Assembly (NCBI GenBank): GCA_048885525.1
Contig: JBHLLP010000016.1
Coordinates: forward strand, 8,458-72,457
Source: Candidatus Hermodarchaeota archaeon
GTDB lineage: Archaea > Asgardarchaeota > Lokiarchaeia > Sigyniarchaeales > SOKP01
DNA length: 64,000 bases
Reading direction: 5' to 3'
Every line of letters starts with the position of its first letter. The first letter of the stretch is position 1. Of this stretch, positions 7,377 through 14,635 are shown piece by piece. The translations under genes and the position numbers were made by a program. Below the pieces are notes generated by a model. The model had not been told where the DNA came from. It saw nothing but the letters and a program-made list of their open reading frames with translations, and did no database searches.

Positions 7377-10349
7377 TTGACAACTCAAGACCCATTAGAT
7401 CATCAAGAATCATTAGACACTGAAAAAATTGAGAGCTTAATTTTAAATGGGTATAATGAAAAAGCTGCTGAAGAAATTTTTACTATTGTAGAAAATTATG
7501 ATAATCATTCTGATAAAGAACTTATTTATCGAAGCCTTAGTTTATTAAATCTGATTTGTGATAAATCTCCAGCAATTTCATTGAGAGCAATCAAAAATAT
7601 AATTCATTTTATAAATGATTCTGATTCTTGGATAAGATTAGTTTCATTAGAAATATCATATCAAATAAGTTTGTTTAGACCTAACTTGTTACTTGAGTTA
7701 TTACCTAAAATTCGAGGAAGATTATATGATCAAGACCCCGCCGTGAGGAGATTAACTGTAAAGATCATTGGTAATCTGATTTTATCCTTACATATCGATT
7801 TGGGAGAAATACAGGAAATTATTGAAGAATATACAGAAAAATTAATGGATAATGATTGGAAAGTAAAGCTCAATGTAATCAAAACTATTCAGAAGATCTT
7901 AAATCAGGATTATAAAAAAATTAGGAATTTAGAACCATTATTATCAATGGTGATCATTAATTTAAGAGACGAAGATGATGATGTTGCTAGAGCTGCAGCA
8001 GAACTTTTAAAGATTCATGGGACATACTTTTTGACAAAGGAAAAGATCCTTTATATTTTATTAAATCTTCTCTATAACGAGGAAAATAGGGTTAAAGAGC
8101 TAATTATTTGGTTATTTGGAGAAATTGGAAAGGAAAAATCTCCAGAAATTATATCAATAATTCCAAAATTAATTAATTTACTAAAAGAAAAAGATTATCG
8201 TATTCAATTAAAAGTAATTGAAGCACTTGTTAATATTGGTGAAAATAATTTTGATCAAATTTGGGCAAATCTTATACATTCCATTTTAGAAGCCAGTGAT
8301 TACAATTATAGAAATTCATTAATAAATGCAATATTTCATCTATCCCGGAAGAATATAACTGAAATATTTCCTTATTTATTTGAAGAACTGGAAAATCCAT
8401 CTGAAAACATCAGAGAAGGTATTGCTCTTGTATTTCAACGCTTATTCGAAGAGTACCAGATTGAATTAGAAAATGAAATTACTAAAATTTTATATCAATT
8501 AGATTCACGTTTTTGGAGAGAAAGAAAAAAAACTATAAATCTCCTCCAACATATTTGTTTCATTTTGGAAAATAAAAAGATTGCTGTCTGGATTACAATT
8601 GAATTAAACAATACTTTAAATATTGAAAAGGATCCAGAAGTGAAAGCAGAAATTATTTATACACTAAAGAATATTAAATCTAATTTTCCAGATATTGATG
8701 GAGCTATCGAAAGAATCAATAATGAATTATCACTATTTCAGAAAAGAATTAACGAGTTCCAGAAGATTCCTGCCCAATTTAGAGAAAAACTGAATTCTTA
8801 TATAGAAAATTTCAAATTTAATGATACAGAGATTCAGTTAAATGAAAAATACAATAAAATATTGAAAAAAATCAAAAAATTCTCATTATTAATTAATAGA
8901 TTTGAATACAAAAGGTTAGCTTTTGATTTAATCGAAGAATGGGAAGAAACTAGGGTTCAAATAATTGAAGAATTAAGTATTATTAAAGGCTTCATCTCTG
9001 AAATATGTGAAGAGAAAAAAGCCGAATTTGTTTCTAATTTAAAAGAAAATATTAAGAAAATAAATAATCGTATTGATGTTCTAAAAGCAGAATTTGATTA
9101 TGTGAAAGAAACTAAGTTTGAAGTTAATCTAGGCAAACGTTTGTCTACACTTGGATCTGATTATATTCAAGAAGATAACCTGGACAATATCACCCAAATT
9201 AGAAAAAAACTGTTCAAAATGGATGGTGATATCAGAGAAATATTGATAGCAAATGTAGAGTTTAATGAGATATTTAAAAACCTATTACAAAAATGGGTTG
9301 CAACTAAAATTGAAATCCAAGAATATTTGAATGATTTAGATCATCAAATTAGATTAATGAAAGATAAATTAATTGAATATAAAGAAGTAGAACCTATAAG
9401 TAATATTCAGATTAGATCGAAAATGATTAATGGGATTAGTTCTGAACTTAATTTTCAACTCCTTCAAAGTCATATTCAGACTATTATTACAGAGAGAATT
9501 GAAGGAATGAAAAAATACAATGATGAATTTAGTGATCTTATTTCTAAACTAGACCTTTTATTAAAAAAAGATGAATTTTCAGATGTTAAGAAATTAGTAG
9601 AAATGAATTCAACACAAATTCAAAATTATATTGAAGATACTGAAAAACAAATTAATAATATCATAGGAAATGAAAAATTATTTGAAGATAATAATATTTT
9701 TAATTTATATATAAGACCTTATATCAATAAGTTTAATTCATCTAAAGAATTATTGATAAATCGATTAAAAACATTCAATAGAAAAGCTAAAAATAAACTT
9801 TACCTAAATCAGTTAAAATACTACGCGAAAATTCTGAATCCGATTAAACTTGATTTATTATCATCTTATATTGACTTAGATATTGAGCGATTAAAAGATC
9901 TTATTCTAAAATTTATAAATAAAAATAAAATCAGTGCAAAAGTAATTAATGACAAACTTTACTTTCAGCAGATAGAATCTGAAATGCCAGATTCAAAAGA
10001 AATTCTCTTTTTTAAAAATATAAAGACGATAGGTAACGAAATTTACCTAAACTTTAAATTATCTAATCCATCAAATTTTGATTTCAAGGATTTACAAATA
10101 TCTCTTAAGATACCCTCTTATCTTAATTTTCAAAGAAAAGAAAGCTTTCCAAAATATCTACAAATAAATGAGTTAAAACCAGGGAAAAATTTCCAATTCA
10201 ATTATGTGCTTAAAGTAGATAAACAAAAAGAACTTAAAAAAAATCTTTTTGATCCTTCAGCTGATGAAATTAAGCTTGACTTGTATTATAGAGATCAATT
10301 CAATATTGCTCGGAAGACGACTAAACATATTGATCTCTTCATTCCTTAA
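7377..10349 (+). CDS. HEAT-repeat protein with coiled-coil, PCI-like winged helix and C-terminal Ig-like domain
   Basis: Many 'L.D.D..VR' HEAT units in the first ~430 aa, a helical middle region, 'LSSYIDLDIERLKDLILKFINKNKISAKV' (PCI-like) and a beta-rich C-terminus. Confidence 0.75.
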   Translation: MTTQDPLDHQESLDTEKIESLILNGYNEKAAEEIFTIVENYDNHSDKELIYRSLSLLNLICDKSPAISLRAIKNIIHFINDSDSWIRLVSLEISYQISLFRPNLLLELLPKIRGRLYDQDPAVRRLTVKIIGNLILSLHIDLGEIQEIIEEYTEKLMDNDWKVKLNVIKTIQKILNQDYKKIRNLEPLLSMVIINLRDEDDDVARAAAELLKIHGTYFLTKEKILYILLNLLYNEENRVKELIIWLFGEIGKEKSPEIISIIPKLINLLKEKDYRIQLKVIEALVNIGENNFDQIWANLIHSILEASDYNYRNSLINAIFHLSRKNITEIFPYLFEELENPSENIREGIALVFQRLFEEYQIELENEITKILYQLDSRFWRERKKTINLLQHICFILENKKIAVWITIELNNTLNIEKDPEVKAEIIYTLKNIKSNFPDIDGAIERINNELSLFQKRINEFQKIPAQFREKLNSYIENFKFNDTEIQLNEKYNKILKKIKKFSLLINRFEYKRLAFDLIEEWEETRVQIIEELSIIKGFISEICEEKKAEFVSNLKENIKKINNRIDVLKAEFDYVKETKFEVNLGKRLSTLGSDYIQEDNLDNITQIRKKLFKMDGDIREILIANVEFNEIFKNLLQKWVATKIEIQEYLNDLDHQIRLMKDKLIEYKEVEPISNIQIRSKMINGISSELNFQLLQSHIQTIITERIEGMKKYNDEFSDLISKLDLLLKKDEFSDVKKLVEMNSTQIQNYIEDTEKQINNIIGNEKLFEDNNIFNLYIRPYINKFNSSKELLINRLKTFNRKAKNKLYLNQLKYYAKILNPIKLDLLSSYIDLDIERLKDLILKFINKNKISAKVINDKLYFQQIESEMPDSKEILFFKNIKTIGNEIYLNFKLSNPSNFDFKDLQISLKIPSYLNFQRKESFPKYLQINELKPGKNFQFNYVLKVDKQKELKKNLFDPSADEIKLDLYYRDQFNIARKTTKHIDLFIP

Positions 10350-10497
10350 AATAACAAGATTTTTGATTGAATTTTTTCATTAATTAATCTCAAATATTCA
10401 AAAATTTAATAATTTATATGGAAAAGATTAATATATCCATCTATACTATTTAAAACTACTTAAATTGATTAATATAATTACAAGAATGAGGTGAAGA

Positions 10498-11563
10498 ATG
10501 CAAGAATTAGAGAGTTATCGATTGACACTGCAAACGAAACTTTTTGGTTGAAACTGTCTCAGTTACACTTGCGACGGCAACATACTGTAAGCTTTTTAGC
10601 GAGAAATTAGAGAAACTACTTGCCAATACAGGATTAAATGGTGATATTGAAGATTCCGCAATTATTCCTGTACCAAATACTAATCTTGTCATGGCTAAAA
10701 ATATAGATATCTTTACTCCAATTATAGATGAACCAGATATCATGGGAGAAATTGCCGCAGCTAATGTTACTAACGATATTTCCGCGCTAAATGTTCCCGA
10801 AATTTCTGGAATGCTTGTTTTCCTAGGATTAAAGAAAAAAATGCCTATGTACATAGCAGAAGGAATACTAAAGGGAATCAAAAACTTTATGGAAAACAAG
10901 TTAAATTCTAAAATTCTTGGAGGTCATACTATTTTCAGCCAATGGCCATTGATTGGGGGCGAAGCCTCTGGTTTCGTTGAAAAGGATAAAATTATCAAAA
11001 AAGATTATGTAGAAGAAGGAGATAAAATAATTCTAACAAAACCAATTGGAAATCAAGCAATAATGGCAGCATACAGACTTCAAAAAAACAATCCTGACCT
11101 TTTAGAATCTTATTCTACAACCGAAATTGACACTTCTATCGATATAGCTGTGAAATTAATGATATCACCCCTTCAAGATGTTGTAAAGACCATTCACACT
11201 TACAAAGATATGTCATTCATTCATTCGATGACAGATGTTAGTGGTTTTGGTCTTGCTGGGCATCTGAGAGAAATGCTTCAAAATTCAGGTCTTTCTGCTA
11301 TAATTGAGAAGATCCCTAGTATTAGACTGACAAGCGACTTAGCTTATGAATTTGGTTATAAATATGATGAATGTGAAATGCCTGAAACTGCTGGGGGGAT
11401 GCTTTTATCTGTTGATCACGAATATGCTGAGGAATTCTCACAGAGACTTAATAGTAAATATGGCGTAAAAAATTGGACTGTAGGTACGATCGATAACATC
11501 AATAAGCCCAAATATGTTCGTGTTTCTGAAAATGTTGAACATATTGAAATAACTAAAATTTAA
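10498..11563 (+). CDS. selD: Selenophosphate synthetase (selenoprotein, Sec18), split by a 31-nt BHB intron: join(10498..10552,10584..11563), 344 aa
   Basis: SD GAGGTGA precedes ATG 10498. Exon 1 reads MQELESYRLTLQTKLFG-TGA(10549-51). After intron removal the sequence continues N-C-K-L..., collinear with the second selD. It has DIFTPIIDEP, AAANVTND, GGHT, LTKPIG and TDVSGFGL.GH motifs and a 3' SECIS. Confidence 0.92.
10553..10583 (+). other. Bulge-helix-bulge (EndA-type) intron in selD mRNA
   Basis: Central helix GTTG(10547-50)/CAAC(10578-81), 3-nt bulges AAA(10551-53) and ATA(10582-84), inner helix CTGTC/GACGG and outer pair G10546-C10585. Cutting after the second nucleotide of each bulge removes 31 nt and restores the frame. 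Confidence 0.88.
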
Positions 11564-11635
11564 CGATGTCAATGAAATAAGCAAAAACACATTATTGTGG
11601 TAGTTTATTGAGAATACTGTTGCAAAACAGCATCG
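11564..11635 (+). promoter_or_regulatory. Eukaryote-like SECIS element (3' UTR of selD-1)
   Basis: ATGA(11572-75)-AATAAGC-AAAAA-CAC..GTG-GTA-GTTTATT-GA(11610-11): AUGA/GA core, upper stem, unpaired A run and apical ministem. Confidence 0.88.
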
Positions 11636-11837
11636 AAAATATTTGAAAATATTATGAATTATCTTATTTTTAAAAAAATTTCCTATTCTGTGTGAAATAC
11701 TAAGTTATATCTTTATTATTAATTATCGATATTTTCGATAAAAAATATCGAAAAGATTAATAAATTAGAAATATTCCCTCTTATACCATAAAAATTAAAA
11801 TGAGAACTTAAGAAAAAAAATAACAGAAGAACAACCC

Positions 11838-11999
11838 GATTGGTACCATCCTTATTAAGTAGAAGTGATTCAATTAGAAAAAGAGTTTAAAAAGGAGAGA
11901 TTACCAGTATTATCAATATCTAACGAATATTCCTAAGAGCATAAAGCATCTCTGATAACCAGAATTGAAGCATTCTTAGAAATGTTAAAAAAAATTTAA
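11838..11999 (+). pseudogene. Remnant of the C-terminus of a 2-hydroxyacyl-CoA dehydratase (HgdA/B-like) subunit
   Basis: The frame reads DWYHPY*VEVIQLEKEFKKERLPVLSISNEYS*EHKASLITRIEAFLEML. 'TRIEAFLEML' is the typical family C-terminus, and there are two internal TAA stops (11856, 11934). Confidence 0.7.
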
Positions 12000-12069
12000 T
12001 TAAAAAAAACAGTATAATATTATATACTGAAATATTTGAATCAGATTTAATTATTAATGTGAGGTGAAA

Positions 12070-13095
12070 ATGGAAAAACCAGAGTATAGGCTGACCCTAG
12101 ACGTTAAGATACACGGATGATCATGTAAGCTTGGACAAAACGATTTGAATGACTTATTAGTTAGAGTAGGATTAGCAGGAGACATTGAAGATGCTGCTAT
12201 TATACCAATACCTAATAGCGATCTGGTTCTTGTTAAAAATATCGATGTTTTCACACCAATTATTGATGAACCCGAACTCGCTGGTGAAATTGCGGCATGC
12301 AATGTAACTAATGACATTTTTGCGATGAATGTGCCTGAGATTTCAGGTATGCTTGTATTTCTTGCAATTAGTACAAGAACACCCATGGAAGTTGCCGAAG
12401 GTATTTTAAGAGGAATAAAGTATTTTATGGAGAAAAAAATTAATTCTCGAGTGGTTGGTGGACACACGATTTATAGTGAATGGCCATTAATAGGAGGAGA
12501 AGCATCTGGATATGTCGAAAAAAGTGCTATTATCCAAAAGCAAGGTGTAAAAAAAGGAGATAAATTAGTTTTAACCAAACCGATAGGATTGCAAGCAATA
12601 ATGGCATCATATAGGATTCTGAAAGATTTTCCAGAAATGTTAGAACACTATTCAGCTGAAGAACTTCAAAAGTCAATTGATCTTGCCATAAAAATTATGA
12701 CAACTCCAAATCAAGATGTTGTAAAAACTATTCATTCTTACAAGGATTTTTCATTCATTCATGCCCTAAGTGATATCACTGGATTTGGCTTAGGGGGACA
12801 TACGGCTGAAATGCTGCAAAACTCAAATCTATCAGCTATAATTGAGACTGTTCCATCAATTAAGTTTTCTGAACAGTTATCGCATGAGTTAGGGTATGCT
12901 TTTGATGATTGTAAGTGCCATGAAACTGCAGGGGGTATGCTCCTGGCTGTTGATCCTACAAAAGTTGAAGAATTTACAAATAGGCTTACAATTAATAAAA
13001 TATCAAACTGGATTATTGGTACAATTAATCAACAAAAACCAGGTTTGGTTCAGATTTCAGAGCAAGTTCAAAACATTGAAATTACAGAAATTTAA
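12070..13095 (+). CDS. selD: Selenophosphate synthetase (selenoprotein, Sec17), intronless paralog, 341 aa
   Basis: SD GAGGTGA precedes ATG 12070. It reads MEKPEYRLTLDVKIHG-TGA(12118-20)-SCKL, in frame with ORF 12145..13095, giving a UxxK active-site motif. A 3' SECIS is present. Confidence 0.95.
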
Positions 13096-13096
13096 A

Positions 13097-13166
13097 GATG
13101 TTAATGATATAAGCTTAAACATTTCATATGGCTGCTTATTGAAAATTCCACTTGCGAAGTGGCATC
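13097..13166 (+). promoter_or_regulatory. Eukaryote-like SECIS element (3' UTR of selD-2)
   Basis: ATGA(13104-07)-T-ATAAGC-TTAAA-CAT..ATG-GCT-GCTTAT-T-GA(13141-42); same architecture as the first SECIS. Confidence 0.88.
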
Positions 13167-13179
13167 AAAAATGAAACTA

Positions 13180-13971
13180 TTATCTTTCTTTAATTTTTCC
13201 ATTAAGTTTTGTGATAATTTCTCTAATTTCATTAAGAGCGTTATCTATTAATTTTTCACCGTGTTCTACATTAAAGGCGGTTATTGAAACCTCTACCTCT
13301 ACTGATAAGCCAATTCTAGGATGGGTTTTAATCCAAAGTTGAGGATACTTTTTCTCTAATTCATTTGTATATGCTGCAATCTGGCTCTCTCCAACACCTG
13401 AAAAAAGAAAACCTTTCTCAATAAAATTTCCTTGTTGTTCTTTTAGAATTGGTATAATAATATTTCTAAACATAGCTTTTAACTCAGCAGGTACACCAGG
13501 TAAAATAAAAATTGTAATATTTTTTTCAGTAAGCTTAACGCCTGGAGCAGTTCCTACTGTATTAGGTAGCGGAATAGAACCTTTCGGAAGATATGCCATT
13601 TTTTCTCGTTCTTTAGTCATACCTTCGAGTTGTAATAGTCCTTTTTTATGAGCTCGTTTGTAAGTCTTCTCAATAGTTTTATACGCATGATGATCTAGCT
13701 CTAAATTCCTATTTAATCCATATGCTATTCCCTGCAAAGTCATATCGTCAAATGTGGGACCGAGTCCTCCAGATGTTATAATAATATCTGGTTTACGTTG
13801 TAAAATTTGTTTTAATGTCGTCGAAATTACTTCAAGCTCATCTCCAATAGTAATAATCCTTTTAACTTGATGTCCATACTTAGTAATTCTTTTTGCCATC
13901 CAATTAGAATTTGTATCTTGAGTCTTTCCAATAAGGATTTCATTTCCAATCATTAATAATTCAATTATCAT
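13180..13971 (-). CDS. CinA-like / molybdopterin-binding domain protein
   Basis: IGNEILIGKTQDTNS.W, SGGLGPTFDDMT, N.VGTAPG and LPGVPAE motifs. Confidence 0.9.
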   Translation of the reverse strand: MIIELLMIGNEILIGKTQDTNSNWMAKRITKYGHQVKRIITIGDELEVISTTLKQILQRKPDIIITSGGLGPTFDDMTLQGIAYGLNRNLELDHHAYKTIEKTYKRAHKKGLLQLEGMTKEREKMAYLPKGSIPLPNTVGTAPGVKLTEKNITIFILPGVPAELKAMFRNIIIPILKEQQGNFIEKGFLFSGVGESQIAAYTNELEKKYPQLWIKTHPRIGLSVEVEVSITAFNVEHGEKLIDNALNEIREIITKLNGKIKER

Positions 13972-14077
13972 GAAAAAATCCCCAAAAAATTCTAGTTATA
14001 TAATATTTTATAAAACTTGATATTTTTTAATTAATTTACTCAATTACTTGTAGAAAAAATAACGTGTTTTTAAATAT

Positions 14078-14635
14078 ATGACAATCGAAATAGACGATAG
14101 TGGCACGGGTGACCTTGTAGGAGATGCGTTTATAGGTCTTTTAAGGAAAGAAACTGGAGAGTTGGTTTTTAAAACATTGCCTGTCAAGCTTTTTCAAGGA
14201 AAAAACTGGAAAAATAAAAAACCTTTAAAGGTTGCTGTGGAACTTATACGAGAAGGATTACAGGAACTAAATTTCCAGAATCAAACTGAAAAAGTAGAAC
14301 TCTGTAGAGGCAACATTTTCGATTATGTAAGGAATTATTTTGTAGAGGAAGGCATCAATTACGAAGATGCTATAGTTGAAGGAAAACTACAAGATGCAGT
14401 TGAGGGGAAATTGTTAGAACACCTCAGAAATGATTTAGGTGTGAGATCCAAACGTTTAACTAAGAAAAGTGGAGCTAAACGGTTTTTTGTATTATTTAAT
14501 TGGGTTTGTTCTGATATTTTTAAAAGAGAGAAGTATGTTAAATCAGGATTTAAAAAATGGAACACAGTCTGGCGTGATCGTGCCATTGAAAAGTATAATA
14601 AAATTAAATCTTCATATAAAAATAATAAATCATGA
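14078..14635 (+). CDS. Conserved hypothetical protein, RNase H-like N-terminus
   Basis: 'IEIDDSGTGDLVGDAFIG' resembles the RNase HII GxDEAGRG..G motif. Function unresolved. Confidence 0.55.
   Translation: MTIEIDDSGTGDLVGDAFIGLLRKETGELVFKTLPVKLFQGKNWKNKKPLKVAVELIREGLQELNFQNQTEKVELCRGNIFDYVRNYFVEEGINYEDAIVEGKLQDAVEGKLLEHLRNDLGVRSKRLTKKSGAKRFFVLFNWVCSDIFKREKYVKSGFKKWNTVWRDRAIEKYNKIKSSYKNNKS

Follow-up and report, generated by a model that had tools for sequence, protein, structure and literature searches.

A conserved side hairpin in Asgard SECIS elements: predicted three-way junctions behind two tandem selD genes and behind other selenoprotein genes

The window analyzed here is a stretch of 64,000 nucleotides (nt) of contig JBHLLP010000016.1 (assembly GCA_048885525.1, positions 8,458 to 72,457), from the genome of a Candidatus Hermodarchaeota archaeon (3.58 Mb, 29% GC, 99% complete). 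On its forward strand lie two tandem genes for selenophosphate synthetase, selD-1 and selD-2, each followed at its stop codon by an RNA element that has an AUGA...GA core, about 1 kb downstream from the in-frame UGA that codes for selenocysteine (Sec). The tandem pair was found in all 24 of the 24 congeneric genomes sampled; the relatives, gathered by similarity to SelD, were labelled as Promethearchaeota or Promethearchaeia metagenome-assembled genomes (older name Lokiarchaeia), e.g. Loki_b32. With a probability of roughly 0.8, we read both elements as genuine predicted selenocysteine insertion sequence (SECIS) elements of the Asgard selD type (type II), whose full shape is a three-way junction, not a two-helix fold, and which have counterparts behind FrhD/VhuD-type and HdrA-type genes; in this shape the third arm would serve for bracing, for docking or for both.

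The two elements share one layout (Table 1). A closing helix, P1, leads into the AUGA/GA kink-turn and on to helix II, which bears an A-rich bulge and a ministem, while a separate hairpin, P3, abuts P1 on the 3' side. An earlier, sequence-only reading of this DNA had proposed an identical three-way junction with an extra 3' hairpin for both. Every base and coordinate that it gave for 11564-11635 and 13097-13166 proved right when the sequence was read again, and the minimum-energy fold produced by RNAfold was exactly that junction in each element. The 3-nt 5' and 5-nt 3' spacers of that reading have the lengths assigned to them but are not wholly unpaired, since two bases of each pair together. 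The resulting canonical (C) helix is 2 base pairs (bp) long, UC with GA in element 1 and UU with AA in element 2, and it leaves a 3-nt bulge (N-A-U) as well as a 3-nt linker to P3.

By sequence, both elements carry the C helix, the 3-nt bulge, the tandem G.A/A.G pairs and the noncanonical (NC) helix, here helix II, that characterize a kink-turn, and the non-bulged strand leads from GA directly to the C helix. For type II Asgard elements resembling the eukaryotic SECIS (eSECIS-like), the text of Huang, Xiao and Zhang 2024 (PMC11227280), as far as available, names the core, the upper stem and the apical loop as the key regions, with an upper stem of 7-15 bp (at most 2 mismatches) and a bulge of 4-12 nt starting with adenines; the ministem has 2-8 bp and the apical loop 2-6 nt. 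The upper stem and apex of the window elements agree with this description: element 1 has 7 bp, the bulge AAAAA, the ministem CACA/UGUG and a 4-nt loop, and element 2 has a U.U followed by 6 bp, the bulge UUAAA, the ministem CAU/AUG and a 5-nt loop. The core is present as well (ATGA 11572-75 with GA 11610-11; ATGA 13104-07 with GA 13141-42), and each element is located in the 3' untranslated region (UTR), just past a gene in which a known Sec position is coded by an in-frame UGA.

Conservation of the junction was observed first of all in congeneric orthologs. Alignment A1 included 43 elements, cut from the 3' UTRs of the selD-1 and selD-2 orthologs in the 24 congeneric genomes sampled. For the structure of the sequence-only reading, 93% of the cells of this alignment paired, and the figure fell to 26-51% when the partners were slid by 1-3 columns. 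P3 was paired in 98.5% of cases, with changes on both sides in three of its five pairs, and RNAalifold run on A1 alone predicted the three-way junction de novo. The C-helix pair at columns 13/56 was CG in 27 elements, UA in 14 and UG in 2, and it was never unpaired; its neighbor at columns 12/57 was U-A in 42 of the 43. The core positions G14 and A15 (the GA of AUGA), G50 and A51 (the 3' GA) and A12 were invariant in 43/43 elements, and U13 was kept in at least 90%. Conserved pairing with differing sequence had been taken earlier as a sign of selection on structure, and this view is supported, since the arms do stay paired while their sequence shifts. In the orthologs the extra hairpin and the closing helix were conserved, with covariation of P3 inside the genus and with P1 arms that differ across lineages.

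A parser was applied to 142 elements; it replaced a first version which was intolerant of helix II mismatches and of UUGA cores and missed many true elements. In the chance control the kink-turn and helix II were held fixed and the flanks alone were shuffled, while a strict junction had to have 4 bp or more in each of P1 and P3, with a 0-nt linker. A strict junction was present in 117 of the 142 elements (82%), compared to 10.6% with shuffled flanks, and at least 10 arm pairs were present in 60% of elements against 3% of shuffles; since the relatives are not independent, the ratio of observed to shuffled values is not readable as an exact probability. The geometry was also narrowly constrained: among 116 parsed elements, P3 joined P1 with a linker of 0 nt in 108, and the C-helix pairs -1b/-1n, -2 and -3 were present in 116, 103 and 18, respectively.

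A stronger argument than the shuffle ratio is given by the unrelated sequence pairs of P1 and P3 that occur across families and genes. Could the likeness of the two window elements be a product of chance or of paralogy, with tandem duplicates simply inheriting their sequence? The protein identity of the two paralogs is 62% and their P1 is the same GAUG/CAUC, as such an artefact would have it, yet their P3 stems have few positions in common and both still pair. Moreover, unrelated P1 and P3 arms in other families and genes give the same layout, and the strict junction is far more frequent than with shuffled flanks. The cross-lineage data refute this explanation.

These cross-lineage data came in part from other selD genes. 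In a breadth sample of 80 further Promethearchaeota/Lokiarchaeia loci, taken from one-genome-per-species contigs, the selD genes retained the junction. Over about 100 related genomes in all, both paralogs preserve it. In some of these species the selD element was of type I and had an unrelated P1 (CUCCAAA/UUUGGAG, GAUGGA/UCCAUC or AUGUUCG/UGAACAU), with the layout unchanged. A phylum-wide search detected Sec-containing selD in several other Asgard families, and 20 of their 3' ends were examined. The same layout was observed in family f21 (P1 GCGGCA/UGCCGC with P3 CCAYC-ygcaa-GGKGG), in family f18 (GACGG/CCGUC), in family f15 (GAAGCA/UGCUUC) and in the sister family f2 (P1 GGGUU/AACCC or AGUUCC/GGAACU). 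For family f9 (P1 GAGACCG/CGGUCUC), the junction was again a de novo prediction of RNAalifold, and P3 covaried.

Two observations on these loci are worth recording in their own right. At the selD-2 orthologs of some species a type I element, with a stem of 9 bp and an 11-nt loop that ends in AG, takes the place of the type II element and the junction is kept; such loci are L022:1415-1499 (minus strand), L071, L098, L126, L128, L135, L137, L138, L140, L142 and L150. The SECIS types have thus been swapped between genes. In the selD genes of family f9 (L155-L165), the stop codon UGA belongs to the GUGA kink-turn core, and the 5' strand of P1, GAGACCG, lies within the last codons. With both the P1 5' strand and the stop codon inside the element, the terminating ribosome must unfold the SECIS.

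Elements behind genes other than selD were found by a scan of the whole source genome for the type I core (Table 1). Their arms all differ in sequence: CCGAA/UUCGG with CCUU-guga-AAGG, AUGUGU/ACACAU, UCUGAAA/UUUCAGA with ACCCAU-ugu-AUGGGU, UCCAA/UUGGA and UCCGAA/UUCGGA. The AUGA...AA core of one of them is the variant that was reported for VhuU in the text of Mariotti et al. 2016 (PMC4989117). In other genomes, about 25 in number, 30 loci of FrhD orthologs retain the junction, which RNAalifold also predicts. The open reading frame (ORF) of 324 codons upstream of the candidate on contig C80 lacks a match in Pfam and contains two in-frame TGA codons close to its start; the gene may encode an unclassified selenoprotein.

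These genes bear directly on the idea that the third arm is an add-on specific to selD, by which selenophosphate synthetase might, for example, regulate its own synthesis, and that it stands outside the SECIS in general. The sequence-only reading had met the arm behind the two selD genes only and suggested an Asgard- or selD-specific domain; it is also true that the selD elements form a distinct type II subclass. However, the same layout is found behind the FrhD/VhuD-type genes (contigs C5, C6 and C24), the HdrA-type gene (C64), the element on C70, the candidate on C80 and the FrhD orthologs, and the arm persists where selD itself bears a type I element. A restriction to selD is therefore highly improbable. 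The arm recurs in several Asgard families, and the selD half of the suggestion does not hold: the third arm is a general trait of Asgard SECIS elements, as the same layout behind FrhD/VhuD-type and HdrA-type genes indicates.

Table 1. Coordinates and contents of the selD genes, of the parts of the two window elements and of the elements found behind other genes of the source genome. Positions without a contig name refer to the window.
Feature	Position	Strand	Description
selD-1 (paralog 1)	10498..11563	+	Sec codon TGA 10549-51 in FGUNC; stop TAA 11561-63; from translations and congeneric orthologs
Element 1, P1 5' strand	11564..11568	+	CGAUG; begins at the base after the selD-1 stop
Element 1, kink-turn 5' side	11569..11575	+	C-helix UC 11569-70 (pairs with 11612-13); bulge A-A-U 11571-73; sheared-pair G-A 11574-75
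Element 1, helix II and apical part	11576..11609	+	AAUAAGC/GUUUAUU; bulge AAAAA 11583-87; ministem CACA-uuau-UGUG 11588-99; type II
Element 1, kink-turn 3' side	11610..11616	+	GA 11610-11; C-helix GA 11612-13; linker AUA 11614-16
Element 1, third arm P3	11617..11630	+	CUGUU-GCAA-AACAG; from sequence, RNAfold, ortholog pairing and loop motif
Element 1, P1 3' strand	11631..11635	+	CAUCG; zero linker after P3
selD-2	12070..13095	+	Sec codon TGA 12118-20 in HGUSCKL; stop TAA 13093-95; AIRS and AIRS_C domains
Element 2, P1 5' strand	13097..13100	+	GAUG; 2 nt after the selD-2 stop
Element 2, kink-turn 5' side	13101..13107	+	C-helix UU 13101-02 (pairs with 13143-44); bulge A-A-U 13103-05; G-A 13106-07
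Element 2, helix II	13108..13140	+	U.U, then AUAAGC/GCUUAU; bulge UUAAA; ministem CAU-uucau-AUG
Element 2, kink-turn 3' side	13141..13147	+	GA 13141-42; C-helix AA 13143-44; linker AUU 13145-47
Element 2, third arm P3	13148..13162	+	CCACUU-GCG-AAGUGG; from sequence, RNAfold, ortholog pairing and loop motif
Element 2, P1 3' strand	13163..13166	+	CAUC; from sequence, RNAfold and ortholog pairing
FrhD/VhuD-type genes (two)	contigs C5 and C6		two Sec codons each; P1 and P3 present
HdrA-type gene	contig C64		P1 and P3 present
Element by contig end	contig C70		upstream gene cut by contig start; P1 and P3 present
Third FrhD/FlpD/VhuD-type gene	C24:2961-3031 (L173)	-	two Sec codons; AUGA...AA core; full junction UCCGAA/UUCGGA
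Candidate junction	C80:5958-6033 (L038:1501-1576)		AAUCC/GGAUU; P3 ACUC-ugcuc-GAGU; behind 324-codon ORF

Besides its element, the selD-1 gene showed a peculiarity of its own. Its frame is broken by a 31-nt insert at about 10558-10588, one base after the Sec codon, which is flanked by ACTGT repeats; excision of the insert gives back GUNCKLFSEK. An insert of 31 nt with a different sequence is present at the same site in the selD-1 ortholog of another genome, G021 (L006, about 265-300).

The loop of P3 was nearly invariant at its center. A G-Y was present in the loop of 70 of the 74 unique P3 hairpins, and alignment on the G gave the center Y-G-Y. The loops themselves were GCA, GCG or GUG triloops closed by U-A, GCAA, GCGA, GCAC or GCUC tetraloops, and YGCRA pentaloops, with a length that ranged from 3 to 8 nt overall. 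By eye, no complementarity was seen between the P3 loop and the apical loop or a linker. Because Y-G-Y holds steady while the stems and the loop length vary, and because many of the loops are not classic extra-stable ones, selection on the identity of the loop is suggested.

The closest structural precedent for this arrangement is the k-junction of the thiamine pyrophosphate (TPP) riboswitch (Wang, Daldrop, Huang and Lilley 2014, PMC4005666), where a third helix placed directly opposite the loop stacks on the C helix. In both cases the non-bulged strand carries a third helix, which turns the kink-turn into a three-way junction, and the tandem G.A pairs are kept. Unlike in the k-junction, two Watson-Crick C-helix pairs and a linker of 1-3 nt lie here between the G.A pairs and the branch, so that the window elements have a kink-turn on a junction and not a k-junction in the strict sense, although the topology is related. 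The 0-nt link from P3 to P1 may allow stacking of P3 on P1, and the 0-nt link from P1 to the C helix may likewise allow stacking of P1 on that helix.

Such stacking might be all that P3 is for. As a purely architectural part, P3 would brace the C helix by stacking on it or on P1 and would be contacted by nothing, with the loop reflecting a preference for small stable loops. The C helix of just 2 bp speaks for a brace of this kind, as do the k-junction, a precedent in which kink-turn geometry accommodates a third helix on the non-bulged strand, and the variation of the P3 loop from 3 to 8 nt. On the other hand, Y-G-Y is retained while stems and loop length change, and many of the loops (GCAC, GCUC and the GCG triloops) are not the classic extra-stable GNRA or UNCG. 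We regard a purely architectural P3 as possible, if somewhat doubtful.

Several observations weigh against the reading of the window elements as conserved three-way junctions. Their folding energy was ordinary in comparison with shuffled sequences (in 80-nt windows z was -2.2 for element 1 and -0.6 for element 2, whose values ranged from -0.6 to 0.0 overall); with the stability of the single sequences near chance, the case rests on the comparison with relatives. Within this comparison, the P1 core GAUG/CAUC is unvarying inside the genus, where the outermost P1 pair is the sole one to covary (CG 11, UA 7, AU 5, GC 1), and covariation of the P1 core comes solely from the comparison across lineages and gene families. 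Many of the double changes in P3 track the split between the paralogs and thus represent few independent events. The helix counts are partly circular, as the parser demands pairing; this spares only the control with shuffled flanks and what RNAalifold predicted de novo. No strict junction was present in 25 of the 142 cores, mostly, on inspection, by reason of mismatches or longer linkers, and in family f10 the selD gene has a P3-like hairpin for which a P1 could not be placed. Finally, P3 of element 2 read in antisense (13148-13162, minus strand) and followed by AATTTTC has a terminator-like pattern, which sits 18 nt beyond the end of the convergent gene at 13180-13971.

The last point would fit a view of P3, alone or with P1, as a separate 3'-end element, a terminator or an exonuclease block, with no role in recoding; the position of P3 at the extreme 3' side of the element and the T-runs within about 40 nt past element 1 would fit it as well. 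However, P1 encloses the kink-turn, which places P3 inside the SECIS and not after it, and a hairpin that protects an end has no need of a 0-nt link to P1 (108/116) or of a fixed short linker to the C helix. The Y-G-Y loop is conserved across lineages with different stems, and in family f9 the P1 5' strand is within the coding sequence. Transcription termination in archaea, moreover, is known to depend on oligo-T and not on hairpins. Mainly on account of the enclosed kink-turn and the fixed linkers, a terminator or stability role for P3 is unlikely.

Loose descriptors were unspecific in this genome of 29% GC: one had 488 matches genome-wide, and a later version had 93, compared to 59 on the reversed sequence. 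A stricter descriptor, which added the C-helix pair, the 0-nt linker and the G-Y loop, had 21 matches versus 4 on the reversed sequence, with the known elements near the top. R1, a covariance model made from the selD alignment of the genus, gave the window elements scores of 95 and 91 bits. As a collector of the whole class R1 was rejected as too narrow: elsewhere its matches were weak and few distant or type I elements were among them. The MAFFT alignment A5 of 28 type I elements had misaligned flanks and two misaligned sequences, and it was excluded from the pair counts.

With respect to described systems, the window elements are members of the class named SPS (selenophosphate synthetase) lokiSECIS or Asgard type II eSECIS-like. 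The available text of Mariotti et al. 2016 (PMC4989117) calls the SPS lokiSECIS type II-like and gives it a main stem that is short and an extra stem at the apex, and that of Huang, Xiao and Zhang 2024 (PMC11227280) assigns such elements to an Asgard type II eSECIS-like class and names an internal loop and a lower stem, which in selD has G[A/U]G_C[U/A]C pairs. The window elements share with this class the 3' UTR site, the AUGA...GA core, the 7-bp upper stem, the A-rich bulge and the ministem. Unlike the SPS lokiSECIS as described in these texts, they add a side hairpin, a 0-nt junction and a 2-bp C helix. The side hairpin and the junction are absent from the texts of Mariotti 2016, Huang 2024, a 2021 paper and a 2026 review, whose figures may draw them, and a full-text literature search for SECIS plus "three-way junction" returned nothing relevant. 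The sequence-only reading was thus right that the standard model of helix I and an internal loop comes without the extra arm, and the texts on Asgard SECIS elements that we consulted give none.

In comparison with the eukaryotic type II SECIS, the kink-turn core sequence, the A-rich motif, the ministem and the 3' UTR site acting at a distance are alike, while helix II is shorter here and a whole hairpin replaces the 3' side of the internal loop, which turns the element into a three-way junction. A scan of 9500-14500 against Rfam, with E up to 10, detected no SECIS or other meaningful family; the Loki elements were likewise unmatched by eukaryotic SECIS models according to the text of Mariotti 2016 (PMC4989117). 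The same text describes, for the VhuD SECIS of Methanococcales and Methanopyrus, a short extra stem below the main stem with AUGA between the two. These elements are thus similar in being archaeal and in having an extra helix under the main stem and an AUGA motif in between; that extra stem is the lower closing stem of a GAA_A-type SECIS, for which the available text describes no side hairpin. On inspection, an assignment of the window elements to the Methanococcales type was rejected, as they carry the AUGA/GA core and not the GAA_A bulge.

The eukaryotic SECIS-binding protein SBP2 has no known counterpart in archaea. A search of the genome for the L7Ae family (PF01248) found two small genes only, C3:4490-4726 and C3:103026-103304, both of about 125-130 codons. 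With just these two, the genome offers no extra SBP2-like candidate, in line with the reported lack of SBP2.

We observed, then, that P1 and P3 are conserved, covarying and geometrically fixed parts of Asgard SECIS elements, and that Asgard SECIS elements generally conserve the extra side hairpin, which the published texts, as far as these were available, do not describe. P1 continues the 5' strand of the C helix without a linker, and a P3 of 5-6 bp leaves the 3' strand 3 nt past the C helix. As to how the arms may work, the two jointly could stand in for helix I and the internal loop of the eukaryotic element. Together they would clamp a C helix that is probably too short to be stable alone, and the kink-turn could then form in an AT-rich 3' UTR. 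They may also hold the loop with Y-G-Y at a fixed place beside the kink-turn, where it could form a tertiary contact or bind the archaeal reader of the SECIS. More tentatively, P3 with its near-invariant Y-G-Y loop might be the determinant read by an archaeal stand-in for SBP2; the kink-turn on a junction might then be ancestral, and the two-helix SECIS of eukaryotes might have arisen by loss of the arm once SBP2 had appeared.

The Asgard SECIS has been treated as a bridge to the eukaryotic element, while the published models and search patterns, to judge from the available texts, use the core, the upper stem and the apical loop only. The third arm alters the evolutionary comparison with the eukaryotic helix I and internal loop, and it provides a natural case in which a three-way junction completes the 2-bp C helix of a kink-turn. 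It should sharpen how SECIS elements and selenoproteins are predicted in AT-rich Asgard genomes, where the core pattern alone is unspecific. The archaeal SECIS reader has been sought for long, and the third arm and its loop offer a concrete bait for pull-down experiments, with or without P3 or with the loop swapped.

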